DNA of 58,041 nucleotides from a virus (taxonomy: Duplodnaviria > Caudoviricetes): the IMG/VR virus record IMGVR_UViG_3300045996_002471, positions 1 to 58,041 of that record; one strand, written 5' to 3'. The position numbers and the translations under genes were made by a program. Below the pieces are notes generated by a model that had not been told where the DNA came from, searched no databases, and saw nothing but the letters and a program-made list of their open reading frames with translations. Of the stretch, positions 2,585-58,020 are shown piece by piece (the first letter of the stretch is position 1; each line of letters begins with the position of its first letter).

Positions 2585-4882
2585 ATGACCGTCCCGCCCA
2601 CCACCGCCCAGGTCGGATCCCAGGTGCTGCCCTACAACGGCGATCTCGCGTCGGTCGAGAAGCGGTTGCGCACCGAGCGGAAGTTGATGCTGCTGCCCGT
2701 GACCGGCGGGGCGGTTACCGTGTGGGCGGGGAGTGGGCTGCACGAGCAGATGCTGGCGGCGCTGGCCGTGGGCGGCCCGGAGATGCTGGCCATCGGGATC
2801 GGCGGGTCGGCGGCGGTGGCGACCGTGTCGACCGTTGTGCTGCTGGCCGCGGCGGCCCGGACGGGCACCGGTGACGCGCTGCCACATGTGGACGGGCACG
2901 TGAAGGGCCAGAAGCTGCTGGCGGTCCGCAGATTGCTGGCGGGTTCCGCGGGTGCGGGTGTGGCGTTGGCGGTCTTCGGCGGGCATCCGCTGATCGTCGG
3001 CGGCTACCTGGTGGCGGCGCTGATGTCCACCGGCCGCTGGCACCTCGAGCGGTTCCGTTCGCTTCGGGTGCTGAAGTCCGCCCGCGCCGAGATCTCACAG
3101 GCGGCGGTGCCCGCGCGGGGCGAGTCGCAGCCGACGGCCGAGGCGGAGGCCGTCGCGCCTGTCGCCCCGGTCGCGCCCGCTGAGATCGCCGAGATCGTGG
3201 AGCGGTGGCGGGTCGGTGTCGCGCCCAAGCACCTGCCGGGTACCTGGTTGACCAACGGGCAGGTTCACGACGAGGGCCGCATGTCGTTCGTGGTCAACTC
3301 CGGCCCGTCGGGTACCACTCTCGCCGCCGCACAGTCCGTGCTGGAGAAGCTTCCCGCAGCGCTGCGGCTGGCGCTGCCCGCGCCGGACGGTGGCGGCGGG
3401 CAGGACATCGTGTTCGACCAGCCCACCACCGGTGAGCTCGCCGACCGCTCACAGCTGCGGGTGCAGATCATCAACCGGTCGAGCAGGGCGGTGCGCGGCA
3501 GCCGGGTCACGCCCGAACTGGTGGTGTCGCCGACCAACCCGGGCGCGGCGCACATCGGCGGCTACGTCGACGATGCGAGCAACACGTGGTGGGACTTCGC
3601 CAGCGACTCCGGCGCCCACTCCGGCTTCGTGCTGGCCGGCACACGGCAGGGCAAGAGTTCGCTGTTCGACAACCTCGCCTACCGTGCCCGCCAGATGGGC
3701 TACCTGATCGCGTTCCTGGATCCGCAGCGCGGCGCGTCGTCTCCGGTGCTCGCGCAGCACGCCGACTTTCCTGTGCTCGGTGCCGAGCACACCCCCGAGT
3801 TCCATGCCTGGCTGGAGGCGGAGGCGGACCTGCGCGAGTCGTGGATGGGGGCCCACGGCCTGGGCAAAATCACCCCCTGGACACAGGCACCGTGTCGCCC
3901 CGGCGGGGAGCGTCCCGACCCTGACTGCCCGTGCGGCGGAGTCGTGCCGCCGGGGATCATGGCGTTCGTCGACGAGTGCGACCAGGTGTTCCGGCAGACC
4001 CTGCCCGGCACTACCACCACCCGGTGGGGTGGACCGTTCGGTGAGCAGGCCAAGCGCATCAACAAGCTCAACATGGGCTTGGTGACCGCCTCTCAGGTCC
4101 CCGAGCAGGCGATCTTCGGCGGCTCGGAGTTGCTGCGGTCCAGCCTGAGTACCCGCAACTTCCTGGCCATGAGGGTCAACGCCAACAGCGGCGCGGGCCT
4201 CATCCCCGGCCTGCCCTTCAACCCTTCGCTGCTGCCCCGCACCCCTGGGCGGGCGTTGATGTGCGGCGCCGAGTCCCGGCAGATGGAGGCCCAGTTGGAC
4301 TTCATGCCGCGCCGAGAGGACGCCGCGAAGCACGCCGGCCCGTACGCGGAGGACCTGTTCGAGCGGCTGCCGCGGGCACGCCAGTGGGCGCCGACCACGG
4401 CGGCTGCCCGCCGGTTGCTGCCCGCGCAGGGCGAGGACACGGCGGGGGTGTCGCGGCAGGCGGCGCGGAAGCGGTTGGCCCGGCTGATGAGCGGCGGGCA
4501 CGCCGAGCCGCGGGTATCGATCGCCGAGACCGTCCCTGCGGTGTCCACCGGGCCGGTGCCCGCCGCCGGCGGGTCGATGATTGCGTGGCCCGCCGCGGTG
4601 GGCGGCCCGGTCGCGGTCGCCGAGCGGCCCGCGACTGCGGGGACGCTGTCGGAGCGGCTGTTGCGTGCGCTGGACGGGCTGCCCGACGACCGGTGGGTGA
4701 CGATGGGCGACCTCGCCAAGCGCCTGGGTCGGGTCGCCGAGGACGCCGACACCCCCGAGGTGAAGGTGGCCGCGGCGTCGCTGGTGGCCGATCTGGCGGT
4801 CGAGGACGTCATGCTTCCCGGTCGACGCCGGACCGCGGGCATGTCCGCCACGGTCGGTCAGATCCGCGCGGTCCTGCAATGA
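2585..4882 (+). CDS. traB: TraB-like FtsK/SpoIIIE DNA translocase
   Basis: GGAGG RBS; N-terminal TM helices; Walker A AGTRQGKS; Walker B IMAFVDE; FtsK-type VTASQ.P..AIFGG...LR motif; C-terminal winged-helix-like segment. Confidence 0.8.
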   Translation: MTVPPTTAQVGSQVLPYNGDLASVEKRLRTERKLMLLPVTGGAVTVWAGSGLHEQMLAALAVGGPEMLAIGIGGSAAVATVSTVVLLAAAARTGTGDALPHVDGHVKGQKLLAVRRLLAGSAGAGVALAVFGGHPLIVGGYLVAALMSTGRWHLERFRSLRVLKSARAEISQAAVPARGESQPTAEAEAVAPVAPVAPAEIAEIVERWRVGVAPKHLPGTWLTNGQVHDEGRMSFVVNSGPSGTTLAAAQSVLEKLPAALRLALPAPDGGGGQDIVFDQPTTGELADRSQLRVQIINRSSRAVRGSRVTPELVVSPTNPGAAHIGGYVDDASNTWWDFASDSGAHSGFVLAGTRQGKSSLFDNLAYRARQMGYLIAFLDPQRGASSPVLAQHADFPVLGAEHTPEFHAWLEAEADLRESWMGAHGLGKITPWTQAPCRPGGERPDPDCPCGGVVPPGIMAFVDECDQVFRQTLPGTTTTRWGGPFGEQAKRINKLNMGLVTASQVPEQAIFGGSELLRSSLSTRNFLAMRVNANSGAGLIPGLPFNPSLLPRTPGRALMCGAESRQMEAQLDFMPRREDAAKHAGPYAEDLFERLPRARQWAPTTAAARRLLPAQGEDTAGVSRQAARKRLARLMSGGHAEPRVSIAETVPAVSTGPVPAAGGSMIAWPAAVGGPVAVAERPATAGTLSERLLRALDGLPDDRWVTMGDLAKRLGRVAEDADTPEVKVAAASLVADLAVEDVMLPGRRRTAGMSATVGQIRAVLQ

Positions 4883-4901
4883 CATCACCCTCGGTGACGG
4901 A

Positions 4902-4931
4902 AAGCCCTGTCCGGATCGTCGGGCAGGGCTT
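4902..4931 (+). terminator. Stem-loop after traB
   Basis: AAGCCCTGTCCG...CGGGCAGGGCTT. Confidence 0.6.
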
Positions 4932-4938
4932 CTCGCTT

Positions 4939-5107
4939 GGCCATGCAAGCTTGCATCGACCCATGCATTTTCGGCCATGCAAGCTTGCATCCCAATGCAA
5001 GGGTCGATGCAAGCTTGCATGGCCCATGACCTGCGAAAATGCAAGGTCGGGCGGGGTATGCAAGGGGTACCCTTGCATCTCGCCCAGTGGGCCGTTTTCG
5101 CAGGTCA
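4939..5107. repeat. Palindromic ATGCAAGCTTGCAT array with nested inverted repeats
   Basis: 14-bp palindrome at 4943, 4977, 5007; perfect 24-bp IR 4939-4962/5001-5024; half-sites at 4995, 5039, 5058, 5072; 13-bp IR TGACCTGCGAAAA/TTTTCGCAGGTCA near 5027/5095. Confidence 0.9.
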
Positions 5108-5222
5108 GGGGCCTGTGTGCACGGATTCCCACCGTCACGCCGGCCCCCATGCATTCGTCGTCCTCGCGGGGCCGCCGCCCGTTCGCGGGGTCATCACCCA
5201 CTGTCACAGATCGGAGTCAGCA

Positions 5223-5693
5223 GTGACCGACTCGACCGCCCTGCTCCTCGTGCTCGCCGCCGTTGCGTACGGGGTGTGGCACTGGCGCAACCGCTACACC
5301 GCGCCCGCCGCGCCGGGCGGACAGCTCGACACCGCGGAGTTGCGTGAGTTGGACATCGCGCTGGTGCGCTGCGAGCACCCCGACCATCACCCGGAGATGG
5401 TGCCGTTCGCGCCGGTCCGCTACCGGCACGCCCACGAGGACGTCCGCCAGCTCAGCCTCGACGGATGGGGAGCGACCGAGCGGATGAACACGTGCCGGGT
5501 GCACAACACCGCCGGCTGGGTCGGGGATCTGCACGTGCAGTGCTCGCAGCCCGGCTGCCAGACCCACCACCTGATCCCCGTAGCCGATCCCGAGGTGGGG
5601 ATGAGGGATCTGCGGAACCGGGGATGGTGCAACGTCGGGGACCGGGTGGTGTGTCCCTACTGCGCCGGTACCCGCTCCCGCGTCTGGCGCTGA
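5223..5693 (+). CDS. Membrane-anchored Cys/His-rich (Zn-binding) protein
   Basis: GGAG RBS + GTG; N-terminal TM; CEHPDHH, CRVH, CSQPGC, CPYC. Confidence 0.6.
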   Translation: MTDSTALLLVLAAVAYGVWHWRNRYTAPAAPGGQLDTAELRELDIALVRCEHPDHHPEMVPFAPVRYRHAHEDVRQLSLDGWGATERMNTCRVHNTAGWVGDLHVQCSQPGCQTHHLIPVADPEVGMRDLRNRGWCNVGDRVVCPYCAGTRSRVWR

Positions 5694-5842
5694 TCCCCGA
5701 TCCCCAGGGGAGTGCGGATCCCCACCTGCGATCCCCATCCGAGGTCCCCGCCGATCCCCACCTCGAACCCGCCCGCCGATCCCCACCGGCCCGCGGTCCC
5801 CACACCCCCGGTACCCACGTCGATCCCCAGGAGGTGGTCCCC

Positions 5843-6571
5843 GTGATGGGACGTACCCACGCCCTCACCGGCCTGTGCGCCGGCCTCGCCCTCGCGCCCG
5901 TCATGGCCGCGACGTTCGCGCAGTCGGTGCTGGTCGCGGTCGTGACCGCCGGATATGCACTGCTCCCGGACCTGGACCATCCCGGCGCCCGTGCCTCGCG
6001 CCTGCTCGGGCCGGTGACCGGGTTGCTGTCGCGGGCGGCCAGGGCGGGGAGCCGCTGGCTGTACGCGCGCACGAAAGGTCCCCGCGACGAACGCCACCGT
6101 GGGGAGCACCGGCACGCCACCCACACCGTCGCGTTCGCGGTGCTGGCGGGGATCGTGGCGGCGGCGGGTACCTGGGGAGCGGGGGCGTGGGTGGCGGCGG
6201 GGATCACCCTGCTGGGGACCCTGTTGGCGGTCGACGCGCTCGGGGACTGGCTGCTCCCCGTGGTGGGGATCGCGGGGATCGCGTGGTGGGGAGCGGCCGG
6301 CGGGGATGTCCTCGGGGAGTTGGCGGGGATCGGTCCGGCGTTGGGGATCGCGGTGGCGGTGGGGTGCGTGACGCACTGCCTCGGGGATGCGGTGACCCTG
6401 TCGGGGTGTCCGTTCCTGTGGCCGCTGCTGATCGCCGGGGAGACGTGGTACGAGCTGCGGCCGCCGCGGTGGTTGCGGTTCCGGACGGGCGGGGCGGTGG
6501 AGACGCGGGCGGTGTTCCCGGGGTTCGTGGTCTTAGCTGGGGCGTTGGCCCTCAACCTGCCACTGGGGTGA
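5843..6571 (+). CDS. Metal-dependent membrane hydrolase (YdjM-like)
   Basis: MGRTHALTG, LLPDLDHP, HRxxTHT, HCLGDAVTxSGCP motifs; AGGAGG RBS. Confidence 0.85.
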   Translation: MMGRTHALTGLCAGLALAPVMAATFAQSVLVAVVTAGYALLPDLDHPGARASRLLGPVTGLLSRAARAGSRWLYARTKGPRDERHRGEHRHATHTVAFAVLAGIVAAAGTWGAGAWVAAGITLLGTLLAVDALGDWLLPVVGIAGIAWWGAAGGDVLGELAGIGPALGIAVAVGCVTHCLGDAVTLSGCPFLWPLLIAGETWYELRPPRWLRFRTGGAVETRAVFPGFVVLAGALALNLPLG

Positions 6572-6580
6572 CTCGTCGAC

Positions 6581-6617
6581 ACGAGGGCCCCGCGCCAGAC
6601 TGGTGCGGGGCCCTCGT
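6581..6617. terminator. Bidirectional terminator between convergent genes
   Basis: ACGAGGGCCCCGCGCCAG/CTGGTGCGGGGCCCTCGT. Confidence 0.75.
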
Positions 6618-6630
6618 CGTGCATGGGGGA

Positions 6631-7203
6631 TCAGTTCCCGAAGGCGATCAGGTGCTTGTACTCGCTGCCCACCCAGAGGGCCGCAGCGTGGTCCGTGTCG
6701 GTCAGCGCCTTGCGGTTCGACTCGGGGACCAGGTGGGCATCGCCGTGACGGAAGAGGTTGAGCAGGGCGGCGTCGACGTCGTCGACGTGGAAGCGGGCGA
6801 CCTCGTCGTGGTCGCGGATCTTGACCAGGCTGACCCAGTCCTGACCCTTGACAGCCAGGTTGAGGTAGGCGAGGTGGATGCCGGTTTCGACGTCGGTGAA
6901 CTGGCGCCCGGCGGCGGCGTCGTCCTCTTGGAAGAAGCCGTCTTCGATGGCCAGTAAGTGGTTGGCTTCGCCGCCGACCCAGAGGGCCGCGTCGTGGTCG
7001 TCCTGGGTCAACACCTTGCGGTTGGAGTCGGGGGCGAGGTGGACGTAGCCGGTCTGGACCATGGCGAGGAGCATCTCGTTCTGGGCCGCGGGGTCGGAAC
7101 TCAGCATGGGGCGGAGCTTGGCGAGGCGAACCCAGTCCTGCGGTTTCCGGCTGAGGTCGTCGTATGCGGCGACGATCTCGTCTTGGATCGAGTTGTAGTT
7201 CAC
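6631..7203 (-). CDS. Hypothetical protein made of two similar ~85-aa domains
   Basis: Repeated DWVxLxKxR...HLxPxSNRKxLTxxDHxAALWVG..xHLxA; GGAGG RBS. Confidence 0.8.
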   Translation of the reverse strand: MNYNSIQDEIVAAYDDLSRKPQDWVRLAKLRPMLSSDPAAQNEMLLAMVQTGYVHLAPDSNRKVLTQDDHDAALWVGGEANHLLAIEDGFFQEDDAAAGRQFTDVETGIHLAYLNLAVKGQDWVSLVKIRDHDEVARFHVDDVDAALLNLFRHGDAHLVPESNRKALTDTDHAAALWVGSEYKHLIAFGN

Positions 7204-8257: not shown

Positions 8258-9156
8258 CCGCCGTGGACCACAAGCCGCTGCACGAAGACGTCCCGACCGA
8301 GCACGCCTGGGTAACGGGTCGCAGGATCTACGTGCGGACCCCCAAAGACTCCGCGCTCAACCAGCAGCTGGTCGAGCTGGGCGCGAAGTGGGACCGGGAG
8401 GTCCGTGCCCGCTGGGTCGGTACCGGCAAACGGAACCGGGTCCTGCCGCTGGTACTGGCCGACGAGCGGCGCGAGCAGGCCGAGAAGCAGGCAGCGGCCG
8501 CGGTACTGGCCGCCGGTCGGTGGGTGCAGCTGCCGCGCAACGTCGACGGGGTGGTCACCGCCATGCATCAGCGCGCGGGCCGGTTGGGCGCGGTGTGGGA
8601 CGCCGAAAGCCGGCGATACGCGCTGCCCAGCGACGACGCCCGCGACCGACTCCAGCGACAGTTGGACACCTGGCTGGCCGAGCAGCAGGCCGACCGGGAG
8701 CGCACCGAAGCGCAGCGGCAGGCACGACGGCGCGCCGAGGCCGAGCAGGTCGAGCGGGAACTGGCCGAGGTGCGGCAGGTCGAGGCCGACCGTGCCCGTC
8801 GCCGCATCGAGCGGGCCGTCGCCGACAGTGGACGCACCGCAACCGGTGAGACGGTGACGGTGCGCCGCTACGACGAGCGGTACATGAACCGTGCGGGCGC
8901 CGAGCAGGTCGCCTGGCAGGTCGGCACGGTGCGCCGCCTCGCCGACGGCCGCCGCGGGCTGGTCGTCGACCGGCACATCCGGTTCTGGTCCGAGGACGAC
9001 GCCACCGAGTACTCCCACGAGGTCCAGTTGCCCGACAACGCGCACTGGGCGTTCACCTACACCCTCGCGGTGATCGAGCCCACCGATGACGAGCGGCAAG
9101 CCGACACGCTCGGCGCTCACTCCCAACCCCGCGACACCGCGGGAGGTATCTCGTGA
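8254..9156 (+). CDS. Protein with two DUF5710-like (LGAxWD) repeats and coiled coil
   Basis: LGAKWDREVRARW and LGAVWDAESRRY; ATGA overlap. Confidence 0.6.
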   Translation: MTAVDHKPLHEDVPTEHAWVTGRRIYVRTPKDSALNQQLVELGAKWDREVRARWVGTGKRNRVLPLVLADERREQAEKQAAAAVLAAGRWVQLPRNVDGVVTAMHQRAGRLGAVWDAESRRYALPSDDARDRLQRQLDTWLAEQQADRERTEAQRQARRRAEAEQVERELAEVRQVEADRARRRIERAVADSGRTATGETVTVRRYDERYMNRAGAEQVAWQVGTVRRLADGRRGLVVDRHIRFWSEDDATEYSHEVQLPDNAHWAFTYTLAVIEPTDDERQADTLGAHSQPRDTAGGIS

Positions 9157-18375: not shown

Positions 18376-19097
18376 TCAGGCCGCGGCGGCGGCGTGCAGG
18401 TGGGCGAGCAGGGCGGCGCCGATGTGCTCGGCGTAGAGCGGAGGGATCGCTTCCGAGAGGCCGTTCCCGGTCATCCAGTCGATGCCCATCGCCTCCGGGC
18501 CCACGTACGTGCCGATGTCCCCAGTCACGGAGGCGTGATAGCCCTGGTTCCACAGCTCGCGGCGCCGGCTGTGTGCGGTCCGGACCACGTGCTTGGGGTG
18601 CGCGGGGGCTACGAGCGAGAGGCCGGGCGAGGGTTCGAACCTGCGGTGCCGGTAGGTGCGCAGGCCGAACATCCCGCCGCACAGAACGATGGAGCGCTCC
18701 TTGTCGAGCGGGGCTTCCATCACGTTCTCGATGACCCACGGCATGTCGTAGGTCGACATCAGCTCACGGCCGGGGGTGACCAGGTCGGGCTTGTCCGACC
18801 AGAGCGTGCCTTTCTTGAACCCCTGGCAGGGCCACGAGGCGTGCACGGCGTCGAAGGACTCGACGAACGTCCGGTCGCGCAGTACCTCCATGGCGTCCGC
18901 CTGGATGAACACGCCTCCGCGGTGGCGGGCTGCGGCTCGATGTCGACGGCGGTCACGTCGAACCCGGCCCGGCGGTATCCCTCGGAGGCGCCGCCCTGCT
19001 TGGAGCAGAGGTCCAGCAGGCGGGGCCGGGTCAACCGCGGCGGGTTGGGGTGTGGCTGTCTGCCTCCGGGCAGTCGGGGCTCCGTGGGTGCCGTCAT
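18376..19097 (-). pseudogene. Short C5-cytosine DNA methyltransferase, frameshifted at ~18928
   Basis: Motif I LLDLCSKQGG and DIEPQP in one frame; FIQAD, SWPCQ, IENV, RHRRF, EAIPP in another; one extra base restores the ORF. Confidence 0.8.
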
Positions 19098-20215
19098 GAC
19101 GCGACCCGCTCGGCGCGGAAGTTGGGCAACTGGCGCACAAGGTGTTCTTTGAGCAGGTGCACGTCCTGCGGGGTGTTCTGGATGCCGTCCCAGCGGCGGC
19201 GCTCCTCGTCGATGACCCATGTGCGGCCGGCGGTCCAGGCGCAGTAGGCGGCCAGGGTGTTCAGCTGGACACGCAGCCGGTCGCGATCGATGCCAGCGGC
19301 GGGGGTGTCCTCGGTGATGTGGTCCATGACGAAGCCGAGGGCTTGGATTCCGGCGCCGTGGGTGAGCCGGGACTTGCGGGGCGGGAGTTCCCACTGGTCG
19401 GCCCATACCTCGGCGACCGCCGACCAGAAGGCGTCGAGGTGCGCGGTGATTGCGTCGAGGTCGCCCATGCCGGTGGCGGGGTCCCGGTACTGGTAGAGGG
19501 CTCCGTCGGTGAGGCTGTTGCGGATCATGCGCAGGACGGCGGTGCCGGTGATGTAGCCGTCCGGGCAGGTGGTGGTGCGGATGCGGCCGGCGAACGCGTG
19601 GCTGGCGGTGTTGAGCCGTGCCACGACCGCCGCGGGCAGGCGCCGGGCGGCCATCGCGGGGGGCAGGGTGGCGTCGACACCGGGCAGCAGCTCGTTGACC
19701 AGTCCGGCCGGGAGCGGCTTGGTGTTGTTCACCAGCAGGAACTGTGAGCGCTGCTCCTCCTCGGATTCCGCGGTGAACCCGACCACGGCGACCGCGAACG
19801 GGCCGGTCAGGGACGCGTCGCGCAGGGCGGCGGCGCGCTGCTGGCCGTCGACGATCCACGCGGGGCGTTCGTGTTCGGGCTGGTCGGAGTCGACCGGGAT
19901 GACCAGCTCGCCCGGGACGGCATAGTCGACGGGGCTGGGCACCAGCAGCGGTTCGAACCGGACGCGTTGGTCGAAGGCGACGACGATCGCGTTGGGCAGC
20001 ATGGCGCCGTGGCGTTCGAGGTAGCGGCGGATCCCGCGGATGTGGGCGAGGGCCTCCGGGCGCTGGTAGCCGCGGAGTTCCTGGTCGGTGTCGCGGTGGA
20101 CGCGGGACACAGCGGCGAAGGTGTGCAGCTGGGGGCCGTCGACGGCGAAACTGACGACCCGGCGGCCGCCTTGGACGAGTTGGAGCGCGGGGAGGCGGAG
20201 GACGTGTGCGGTCAT
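19094..20215 (-). CDS. dpdB: DGQHR-domain protein, DpdB/DndB-like
   Basis: GYQRP, MLPNAIVVAF, WIVDGQQR, QFLLVNNTKPL, SRLTHGAGI. Confidence 0.75.
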   Translation of the reverse strand: MTAHVLRLPALQLVQGGRRVVSFAVDGPQLHTFAAVSRVHRDTDQELRGYQRPEALAHIRGIRRYLERHGAMLPNAIVVAFDQRVRFEPLLVPSPVDYAVPGELVIPVDSDQPEHERPAWIVDGQQRAAALRDASLTGPFAVAVVGFTAESEEEQRSQFLLVNNTKPLPAGLVNELLPGVDATLPPAMAARRLPAAVVARLNTASHAFAGRIRTTTCPDGYITGTAVLRMIRNSLTDGALYQYRDPATGMGDLDAITAHLDAFWSAVAEVWADQWELPPRKSRLTHGAGIQALGFVMDHITEDTPAAGIDRDRLRVQLNTLAAYCAWTAGRTWVIDEERRRWDGIQNTPQDVHLLKEHLVRQLPNFRAERVAS

Positions 20216-34421: not shown

Positions 34422-34435
34422 CCTTGGAGGTCGCC

Positions 34436-35653
34436 GTGGGACGCCCACCCCTCGCACTCGGTGAGTGCGGCTCCATCCGCACCTTCGGCCACCTCGGCGG
34501 CCGATGGATCGCCAAGGCCAACCTGCCCGACGGCGCGAAGCCCGAGAAGTGGCGGGCGGTCGCGAACTACCGCGGCTACGACGGCGTCACCGCGCCGATC
34601 GAACGCCACGGCCGCACCGAGACGAAAGCCAAGTCGGCGCTCAACGCCGAAGTCCGCGACCGCGCTGGCAAGCGCTCCGCGCTGTCCGGCTACTCCAAGT
34701 TCAGCGAGTTCGCCGACGTGTGGCTCGCCGACGCCGAGGAACGCTGCGCGCCGACCACGATGGTCCACTACCGGCTGAACCTCACCAAGCACGTCCTGCC
34801 GCACCTCGGCGAACTCCGCATCAGCGAAGTGCGCGTCGCGCTGCTCGAAGAGTACTTCCGCGCGCTGCGCGCCACCCTCGCGCCGACCACCCGACGCCGG
34901 GTCCGCAGCGTCGTCAAGCAGGTCATGGACGTGCCCGTCCGGCGCGACATCATCGACCACAACCCGGTCACGGCGGTCAGCGCCATCACCGGGTCCACGG
35001 CGATGCCGCCGCGCGCCCTGTCTTCCGACGAACTGCTCGAGTTGCTCGCGCTTGTCGACGCCGACCGTGGAGCCCGCCGCGCGGACCTGCCGGACCTGCT
35101 GCGCGTCATGCTCGGCACCGGTATGCGTGTGGGTGAGGCGTGCGGGCTGCGCTGGTGCGACATCATCATGGGTCCGACGCCCGAGGACAGCCTCGTCCAG
35201 GTCACAGGCAACGCCGTGTTCGTGCCGCGGGTCGGGGTGCTCCGGCACAGCGGTAAGACGTTCGCCGCACGGCGCAACATCGGGATGCCCGCGTTCCTGC
35301 ACACGCTGCTCGCGGTGCGGCGCCCGGAGGACGCGCTTGACACCGATCCGGTGTTCCCGAACAGCATGGGCGGCATGAAGAACCCGCAGACGTTCCAGAA
35401 CGCTCTGGTCCGGTTCAGGCGGCGTGTCTCCCCCGAAGGCGACGAGCAGCGGTGGGAGTGGTTGGTGTCGCACGCCCTGCGTAAGACGACGGCGACGCAA
35501 CTGGACGAGGGCGGGGCGACGGCGCGTGAGATCGCAGACCTGCTGGGACATGTGGACCCGTCGATGACGCAGCGCGTGTACCTCGGGCGGGGGATGCCCA
35601 GTGCCCGTGTCGGCCGGATGTTGGACGCGGCGCACCGCAAACCTGAGGTGTGA
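34436..35653 (+). CDS. int: Tyrosine integrase
   Basis: TGMRVGEACGLRW; K; SHALRKT; LLGH; TQRVY; GGAGG RBS + GTG. Confidence 0.95.
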   Translation: MGRPPLALGECGSIRTFGHLGGRWIAKANLPDGAKPEKWRAVANYRGYDGVTAPIERHGRTETKAKSALNAEVRDRAGKRSALSGYSKFSEFADVWLADAEERCAPTTMVHYRLNLTKHVLPHLGELRISEVRVALLEEYFRALRATLAPTTRRRVRSVVKQVMDVPVRRDIIDHNPVTAVSAITGSTAMPPRALSSDELLELLALVDADRGARRADLPDLLRVMLGTGMRVGEACGLRWCDIIMGPTPEDSLVQVTGNAVFVPRVGVLRHSGKTFAARRNIGMPAFLHTLLAVRRPEDALDTDPVFPNSMGGMKNPQTFQNALVRFRRRVSPEGDEQRWEWLVSHALRKTTATQLDEGGATAREIADLLGHVDPSMTQRVYLGRGMPSARVGRMLDAAHRKPEV

Positions 35654-58004: not shown

Positions 58005-58020
58005 ATCGGGGATCCCCGAT
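58005..58020. repeat. Perfect 16-bp palindrome upstream of terS (packaging-site region)
   Basis: ATCGGGGATCCCCGAT. Confidence 0.7.

Follow-up and report, generated by a model that had tools for sequence, protein, structure and literature searches.

Why a word as short as GATCCCC should be repeated many times over in a phage genome, partly within coding sequence, and what would read it there, are the questions raised by the locus analysed here. The stretch of DNA studied (the window) comprises the whole virus record IMGVR_UViG_3300045996_002471, a genome of 58,041 bp with 70% G+C. Because an integrase, a capsid protein, a portal protein and other phage genes are encoded in the window, it is a temperate tailed phage. 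The repeats belong to a module of three plus-strand genes, coding for an FtsK/TraB-like translocase, a small membrane-anchored Cys/His protein and a YdjM hydrolase (Table 1). An earlier note on this DNA had interpreted them as a clt, the repeat locus recognised by TraB, and the inversion of their orientation as a polarity switch marking a loading or entry point. We designate these repeats array B. They represent a conserved cis element, which changes its word between relatives, is selected at the nucleotide level and is decoupled from helix 3 of the translocase. Another set of repeats, array A, appears to be the better candidate for a clt.

Array B as a selected element written into coding sequence

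The earlier note had listed eight plus-strand copies of GATCCCC, six of them reading GATCCCCA, and seven copies on the minus strand, and all were recovered at their positions (5573, 5692, 5699, 5717, 5730, 5753, 5778 and 5822 on the plus strand; 6148, 6199, 6265, 6274, 6325, 6343 and 6626 on the minus strand). The proposed layout in two blocks placed these 15 copies correctly but missed a further minus-strand copy at 5523, ahead of the forward block, and the copy at 5573 of the otherwise correctly described forward block turned out to lie inside the small open reading frame (ORF), not in the spacer between this ORF and the hydrolase gene. The spacer also carries variants of the heptamer (Table 1). 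The full word is given here as G-R-T-M-C-C-C, and its cores as C-type, TCCCC(A), or G-type, (T)GGGGA, as they read on the sense strand. The copies are irregularly spaced at distances of 7–25 bp. The first one in the spacer overlaps the TGA of the small ORF, the last one is situated between the Shine-Dalgarno (SD) sequence (GGAGG) and the start of the hydrolase gene, and the spacer as a whole (49% C, 24% G) contains 11 C-type versus 1 G-type cores. Within the hydrolase gene, 6 GGGGATC, 1 GGGGACC and 1 GGGTACC are found between 6148 and 6349, and the total number of GGGGA/GGGTAC cores amounts to 17.

Over the whole window, GATCCCC/GGGGATC occurs 32 times, compared to 12.3 ± 3.7 times in dinucleotide shuffles (0 of 100 reached 32), and the region from 5500 to 6640 alone holds 16 of these copies, where the rate outside predicts 0.32 (Poisson P = 4e-22). 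The enrichment expected by the earlier note against a codon-shuffled null was confirmed for the hydrolase gene, which contains 6 copies of GGGGATC versus a mean of 2.7 when its own synonymous codons were shuffled (P = 0.005). With codons drawn at phage-wide usage, the mean decreased to 0.6, and none of 10,000 draws reached 6. The six copies account for all 6 Gly-Ile dipeptides of the protein, each encoded as xxG-GGG-ATC, and the statement that GGC is the usual Gly codon also held, as it is used in 478 of 801 cases in 24 other ORFs (GGG in 165 of 801), compared to 23 GGG among the 35 Gly codons of the hydrolase gene. We dropped a reading of the words as restriction or methylation sites because GATC is neither avoided nor enriched genome-wide (386 versus 382 expected). 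A single 12-bp palindrome, CGGGGATCCCCG, in which the array B word can be read both ways, is present at the end of the record (58006–58017), about 80 bp upstream of a gene adjoining the presumed large terminase gene; the terminase and its neighbour were assigned from position and size only, having no family hit.

Protein-guided scans retrieved eight further full loci of identical gene order (L001, L005, L014, L015, L016, L021, L022 and L023), which together with the window make up the nine full loci compared here, as well as a partial locus (L025) and a variant (L020). Duplicates of the same contigs were represented by L003 and L013 (identical to L001), L034 (L005) and L036 (L014). The translocases of the related loci are 45–67% identical to that of the window. 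In all nine full loci, the G-R-T-M-C-C-C words are restricted to the small ORF, the hydrolase gene and the spacer separating the two, with the translocase gene and the flanks remaining near background; the members used are GATCCCC, GGTCCCC and GGTACCC, and GATACCC never exceeded background. The hydrolase genes contain 12–20 G-type versus 1–6 C-type cores each, and the words GGGGATC, GGGGACC and GGGTACC add up to 8–11 per gene, compared to means of 1.9–4.2 after synonymous shuffling (P ≤ 0.001 in nine of nine loci). No G-type words at all were detected in the distant hydrolase homologues of L002, L004 and L006. Of the 106 amino-acid contexts in the nine hydrolase genes which are able to encode a G-type word, 84 (79%) do so, and 38 of 41 Gly-Ile pairs are coded by GGG-ATC.

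The word itself differs between relatives, and the coding copies follow it. L001, the closest full relative of the window, has almost no GATCCCC in its module and instead contains 32 GGTACCC (1.9 expected), with 12 forward copies in the spacer and 8 reverse copies within the hydrolase gene; where the window has Gly-Ile as GGG-ATC, it has Gly-Thr, and 7 of 7 such pairs are coded by GGT-ACC. L023, in whose spacer GGTCCCC/GGGGACC occurs, favours GGG-ACC (5 of 5), and L005, L016, L021 and L022 carry a mixture of GATCCCC and GGTACCC upstream along with GGGGATC and GGGTACC downstream. Thus, GGTACCC upstream (L001, L005, L016, L021, L022) goes with GGGTACC in the hydrolase gene, and L014, L015 and L023, which have no GGGTACC in this gene, contain 0, 1 and 0 copies of GGTACCC upstream. 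Because the coding copies follow the change of the word via Ile/Thr swaps and the choice between GGG and GGT, selection acts on the nucleotides, with enough strength to steer both synonymous codon choice and Ile/Thr replacements.

In the variant locus L020, an extra gene (5561–6622) is inserted between the small ORF and the hydrolase gene, coding for a protein with a C-terminal membrane domain and no Pfam hit. Its disordered middle part is encoded by tandem GGACC pentamers, including 32 CGGACC, which read as D-R-T-G-P repeats, and the locus keeps the translocase, array A (as CTGCAACA) and the small protein. Because L020 carries another word in coding sequence at the same place, this argues that the position in the module, rather than the particular word, is conserved. 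The spacer varies from 57 to 252 nt across the loci and includes tandem units, such as a 9-bp unit present four times in L015. Contigs from 4 metagenome runs yielded only near relatives and one spacer-length variant, a 20.6-kb contig in which 131 nt of the spacer (5706–5838) are replaced by 35 nt retaining one GGTACCC and one GATCCCC; because of this replacement, we regard the length of the spacer array as plastic.

Array A, helix 3 of the translocase and the orientation of the words

The non-coding gap that separates the translocase gene from the small ORF contains all 10 copies of ATGCAAG present in the window, located within 4943–5078, compared to 2.07 copies expected anywhere. Arrays of this kind occupy the same place in L001, L005, L014–L016, L020–L023 and L025, each made up of an 8-mer particular to the locus, with TGCA as its core, in 6–10 copies. 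The 8-mers fall into ATGCAAG-type, CTGCAAAG, CTGCAACA and CTGATGCA classes and are arranged in most loci according to a common plan, with a hairpin, 2–3 copies in one orientation, 3 in the other and more around an inverted repeat. Equivalents of the hairpin were found in 9 of the 10 other gap sequences and were not seen in L014 or L020. Both arms of the inverted repeat TGACCTGCGRAAAM are present in most gap sequences, the exact degenerate pattern in 7 of 10 loci (not in L014, L021 and L023). This repeat recurs across most loci while the surrounding 8-mers change; it may bind a conserved factor or form part of a promoter. The gap is bracketed by a 19-nt direct repeat (4883–4901 and 5192–5210, 79% identical), and the only Rfam hits, to microRNA models at the palindromes of array A, stayed below the threshold.

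Known clt loci are reported to consist of clustered 7–9-bp direct or inverted repeats adjoining or overlapping the tra gene, and TraB is reported to read 8-bp repeats by helix α-3 of its winged helix (PMC3583192, PMC4447253, PMC4170104); the same role of helix 3 is given for TraB of pSVH1, as cited in PMC3583192. We compared this helix (model residues 723–739) with the words of both arrays. The array A 8-mer tracks the similarity of helix 3 and not overall relatedness. Thus, L005 and L016 have motors of 87% identity, helices 3 of only 44% and different array A words (CTGCAAAG versus CTGCAACA) in spite of the same array B. The same array A word is shared by L005 and L022 (motors 66%, helix 3 67% identical), and L015 and L020 likewise have the same 8-mer (motors 50%, helix 3 67%). 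Array B behaves differently: the window and L001 differ in their words (GATCCCC versus GGTACCC) at 67% identity of helix 3, whereas the window shares its word with L014 and L015 at 22–28% identity. The assignment of array B as the clt is therefore not favoured. Because its 8-mer co-varies with helix 3 and because it directly follows the translocase gene, array A is a better candidate for the clt with its TRS repeats and likely represents the recognition array of the translocase. It starts about 57 bp after the translocase stop codon, compared to about 640 bp for array B, which lies beyond array A within the next genes.

The strand bias of array B in the spacers is strict, those of the nine loci containing 73 C-type versus 6 G-type cores on the sense strand. 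In reading frame, most C-type words require a Pro codon (D-P, S-P, I-P, G-P, V-P or Y-P) or a next codon starting with C, whereas G-type words require a Gly codon ahead of Ile or Thr, plus a G at the end of the codon before, which synonymous choice freely allows. The part of the hydrolase genes concerned codes for Gly-rich membrane helix and offers the 106 possible G-type sites mentioned above versus 37 C-type sites, 15 of which are nevertheless used. In the soluble small protein, words of both orientations occur, at 34 of the 45 sites open to the G-type and at 21 of the 44 open to the C-type. The flip in orientation is thus largely a coding constraint. Because it is placed at the transition from non-coding to coding sequence, it does not necessarily represent a loading point, and this part of the earlier note was not supported.

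Neither does the word behave like the KOPS sequences that orient FtsK. Outside the cluster, the window contains 8 plus- and 8 minus-strand copies without a switch pattern, and by our own count 9 copies fit a switch model and 8 do not. We also considered TGGGGATC as a KOPS or orienting sequence of the host and rejected it on near-equal strand counts in one host genome of 8.2 Mb (G029, which carries the L014 prophage), where it occurs 152 times forward and 146 times in reverse, with no skew or excess; the first 100 sites listed, covering 3 Mb, are divided into 43 plus and 57 minus.

Candidate readers of array B and rival explanations

The identical short words, irregular spacing and use of both coding orientations are a signature typical of sites for a trans-acting reader, and we infer that array B acts as double-stranded DNA and is read by a protein. 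The closest precedent is provided by SpdA2, a zinc-finger protein reported from Streptomyces plasmids, which binds palindromes (sps) in its own gene or over a start codon (PMC4170104). In addition, its homologue spdA adjoins traB on pSG2, and sps is reported to affect segregational stability (PMC4170104). Because many identical short words are used wherever the coding allows it, and with sps as a precedent, we tentatively favour array B as a second protein-binding locus of the transfer or spread module, with the Cys/His protein as candidate reader, an explanation to which we give somewhat less than an even chance. Array B would then be a selected multi-copy, sequence-specific binding locus of a phage-borne, plasmid-type module for the transfer or spread of double-stranded DNA, overlying the intercistronic spacer and two coding sequences. 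Its reader would more likely be a conserved factor than helix 3 of the translocase. Our guess for the first candidate is the membrane-anchored Cys/His protein encoded within the array, which would tether phage DNA at the membrane beside the translocase, its binding resembling that of SpdA2 to the sps in its own gene.

A homologue of this small protein is encoded in ten of ten loci of the clade, and its ORF bears copies of the motif in both orientations, e.g. those at 5523 (minus) and 5573 (plus). The alignment shows eight invariant Cys and His residues (C50, H56, C91, H94, C107, C112, C144 and C147), which we read as two putative metal sites, and the protein was modelled by AlphaFold2 (AF2) at a pLDDT of 84.6. 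In the more distant locus L006 (translocase 36% identical), which has no array B, a WhiB-like gene (8500–8826) is located directly upstream of the hydrolase gene in place of that for the small protein.

Several observations weigh against this assignment. The model of the small protein matches no known DNA-binding or solved fold (best Z 2.6), and the protein belongs to no Pfam family. L020 has the small protein, yet it contains the GGACC pentamers instead of the array B word. Because the nine loci are related, they provide only about 2–3 independent contrasts or switches of the word. The coupling of helix 3 to array A is confounded by physical linkage over about 300 bp, as the two could be exchanged together. 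Moreover, a reader indifferent to orientation does not predict the ratio of 73 to 6 in the spacers unless the arrays grew by tandem duplication. Finally, the C-type words upstream and the G-type words downstream are complementary on one transcript, and an RNA would explain the same co-variation.

In the latter case, the C-rich words would pair with the G-rich words of the hydrolase gene on a bicistronic mRNA and gate the translation or stability of a potentially harmful hydrolase. The complementarity of the two orientations, which share one strand without an intervening promoter-like site, and the strict strand bias of the spacers would suit such an element, and so would the word classes, which change together up- and downstream and are mixed in similar proportions, since pairing in cis needs no change of a reader. 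One copy is located between SD sequence and start codon in 8 of 9 loci, and the minimum free energy fold of 5685–6400 indeed pairs the blocks (−436 versus −410 ± 7 kcal/mol in 20 shuffles, z = −3.6). However, many identical copies are unusual for RNA helices and would be paired by any folding program, G-type copies also fill the small ORF upstream, and no conserved local structure with compensatory change was found at the start codon, where 1 of 14 predicted pairs shows a double change and the covariation term is −0.17 kcal/mol. There was also no match to an Rfam family. We regard an RNA element as the main rival, though a rather unlikely one. Still less likely is the proposal of the earlier note, in which the winged helix would read the 7–8-bp word of array B and the inversion near 5.85–6.15 kb would mark the loading or direction of the hexamer. 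It is consistent with the TraB-like fold predicted for the neighbouring protein, with the several 7–9-bp repeats adjoining or overlapping tra in known clt loci, of which that of pWTY27 is reported to have two different 7-bp types and to include 16 bp of traA (PMC3583192), and with the β1/helix 2 region and the wing, which, like array B, are conserved across the loci. Against it stand the co-variation of helix 3 with array A instead of array B, the greater distance from the translocase stop codon, the even strand distribution outside the cluster and in the host, and the flip at a coding start, as expected from codon constraints.

It is more improbable yet that array B has no specific function and is a by-product of GGG-rich codons, of C-rich slippage, or of non-B DNA such as a G-quadruplex, i-motif or Rho-loading spacer. 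The hydrolase gene is indeed generally rich in GGG and in G at third codon positions (G3 0.56), the GGG/CCC run is the invariant part of the word, and the variable length of the spacers, the tandem units of L015 and the shortened spacer of the metagenomic relative would fit this explanation. In contrast, the enrichment survives synonymous shuffling within the gene in all nine loci, more than three quarters of the coding contexts able to hold a word do hold one, the non-G portion (ATC, ACC or TACC) is kept and switches coordinately with amino-acid replacements, and distant homologues of the hydrolase contain no copies. Mimicry of the 3' tail of 16S rRNA, or SD-like pausing, was considered separately and rejected: it fits the GAUCC/GGGGA words but fails for the GGUACC words of L001.

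The module in its phage and comparison with known systems

The positions of the features are collected in Table 1. A consensus scan of 4700–6900 for promoters and terminators found nothing.

Table 1. Positions of the module genes, repeat arrays and further elements in the window.
Feature	Position	Strand	Remarks
TraB-like double-stranded DNA translocase, 765-aa form	2585–4882	+	predicted from AF2 model and Foldseek
Hairpin, terminator-like	4902–4931	+	arms 4902–4913 and 4920–4931; not called by consensus scan
Array A	4939–5079	both	10 ATGCAAG copies: three 14-bp palindromes and half-sites
Inverted repeat TGACCTGCGRAAAM and partner about 55 bp away	5021–5113		embedded in array A; arms 5021–5039 and 5095–5113
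Small protein, 156 aa	5223–5693	+	N-terminal membrane helix and Cys/His domain
Array B	about 5520 to 6350	both	word and cores as defined in the text
Intercistronic array B (spacer)	5692–5842	+	7 GATCCCC, 3 GGTCCCC, 1 GGTACCC; C-rich sense strand
YdjM-family membrane hydrolase gene	5843–6571	+	start codon placed from alignment
Hairpin between convergent genes, 3' of hydrolase gene	6581–6617	+	13-bp stem; read from sequence, not called by scan
Seventh reverse copy of GATCCCC	6626–6632	−	outside hydrolase gene and transcript unit; overlaps stop codon of convergent gene
Tyrosine integrase	34424–35653		

Of the earlier note's interpretation, a TraB-like protein beside the array was supported by the AF2 model of the first gene product (pLDDT 78.5), which predicts membrane helices at the N terminus, a motor domain resembling those of FtsK and TcpA, and a winged helix at the C terminus. 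Foldseek matched it to TcpA (6o1x, E 5e-12) and to the FtsK motors 2iut, 6t8o and 2ius (E 1e-11 to 1e-10), and the translation contains Walker A-like (GTRQGKS) and Walker B-like (FVDECD) stretches. A Pfam search gave no hit. Because the FtsK_SpoIIIE model stayed below significance, the 765-aa protein is assigned to the TraB/FtsK-HerA translocases, with a TraB architecture, by its predicted fold and not by sequence. Its 31 homologues, including the window's own, are 40–100% identical and all annotated as hypothetical. A tblastn search found none in phages and 3 weak matches in plasmids, among them L037, which has no comparable array after the gene. The hydrolase was identified by Pfam family YdjM (PF04307; 1.7e-21, 76.9 bits versus a cut-off of 29) and by phrog_20744 (hydrolase, 8e-45).

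Homologues of the window genes were found in prophage-like contigs of Saccharothrix and Actinosynnema and in genomes of Lentzea and other Pseudonocardiaceae; the translocase is present in 3 of 401 sampled genomes of the family. A DNA similarity search against deposited phages gave no match to the window. The window proteins include an HK97-type capsid protein and an SPP1-type portal protein, the recombination proteins RecT, a YqaJ-like recombinase and an exonuclease, and a primase/polymerase-like protein. A DndB-like protein (PF14072, 6e-25) is encoded on the minus strand at 19094–20215, and no other dnd genes were noticed. The convergent gene beyond the hydrolase gene (6631–7203, minus strand) codes for a 190-aa protein of two internally repeated halves of about 90 aa, which belongs to no family; in L021 and L022, its homologues are located 3' of the hydrolase gene on the same strand.

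A broader interpretation, which we consider unlikely, is that a lineage of temperate tailed phages of mycelial Pseudonocardiaceae carries a complete plasmid-style conjugation or spread module with two cis loci, array A read by the winged helix and array B by the Cys/His protein with its unmatched fold. With both, the genome could spread along hyphae in the absence of virions, and array B would be a DNA-binding code imposed on two proteins and driving Ile/Thr replacements in membrane helices. The plasmid-phage pZL12, described by Zhong et al. in 2010 and cited in PMC3583192 and PMC4487206, is said to be a precedent for a phage with a conjugation-type module. Confirmation would provide a natural case of a non-coding signal overriding codon and amino-acid choice in two genes, and the word evolving between relatives would offer a covariation series for finding its reader. 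The separation of two cis loci in a TraB-type module would also sharpen searches for clt loci in actinomycete mobile elements, and the view that conjugation-type DNA pumps are carried by tailed phages of mycelial actinomycetes would be strengthened.

Among known systems, the pac site of phage P1 also consists of short, GATC-containing repeats in two blocks inside coding sequence. Array B differs from it in lying about 6 kb from the terminase genes, in a word that is not always based on GATC and in that no link to a methylase was found. With the KOPS and SRS sequences read by the γ domains of FtsK and SpoIIIE, it shares short, G-rich, strand-asymmetric words beside an FtsK-like motor, but it is local, with no polarity over the replicon and no skew or excess in the one host chromosome. 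The clt/TRS loci of Streptomyces TraB elements (pSVH1, pJV1, pWTY27) likewise comprise clustered 7–9-bp direct and inverted repeats downstream of a membrane-anchored FtsK-like translocase with a C-terminal winged helix, and part of the locus can lie in coding sequence, as reported for pWTY27 (PMC3583192). Unlike these, array B is not tracked by helix 3, is situated 0.6–1.5 kb from the translocase gene, spreads through two other genes and belongs to a tailed temperate phage, and array A fits a clt better. The sps sites of SpdA2 are analogous to array B in layout, as they lie inside a gene for a small metal-binding protein that belongs to a TraB/Spd module, or cover the start codon of a neighbour, and they are reported to be conserved although the proteins vary (PMC4170104). 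They are 12-bp palindromes in 1–3 copies, whereas array B comprises about 25–35 copies of a 7-mer with a palindromic core (GATC, GGTACC or GGWCC) plus a C run, and the small protein, which differs from SpdA2 in its membrane helix and lack of a Pfam hit, is likened to it by layout, its binding being putative. We regard array B as a variant, carried by a tailed phage, of the cis-acting repeats that are known from elements of the TraB type.

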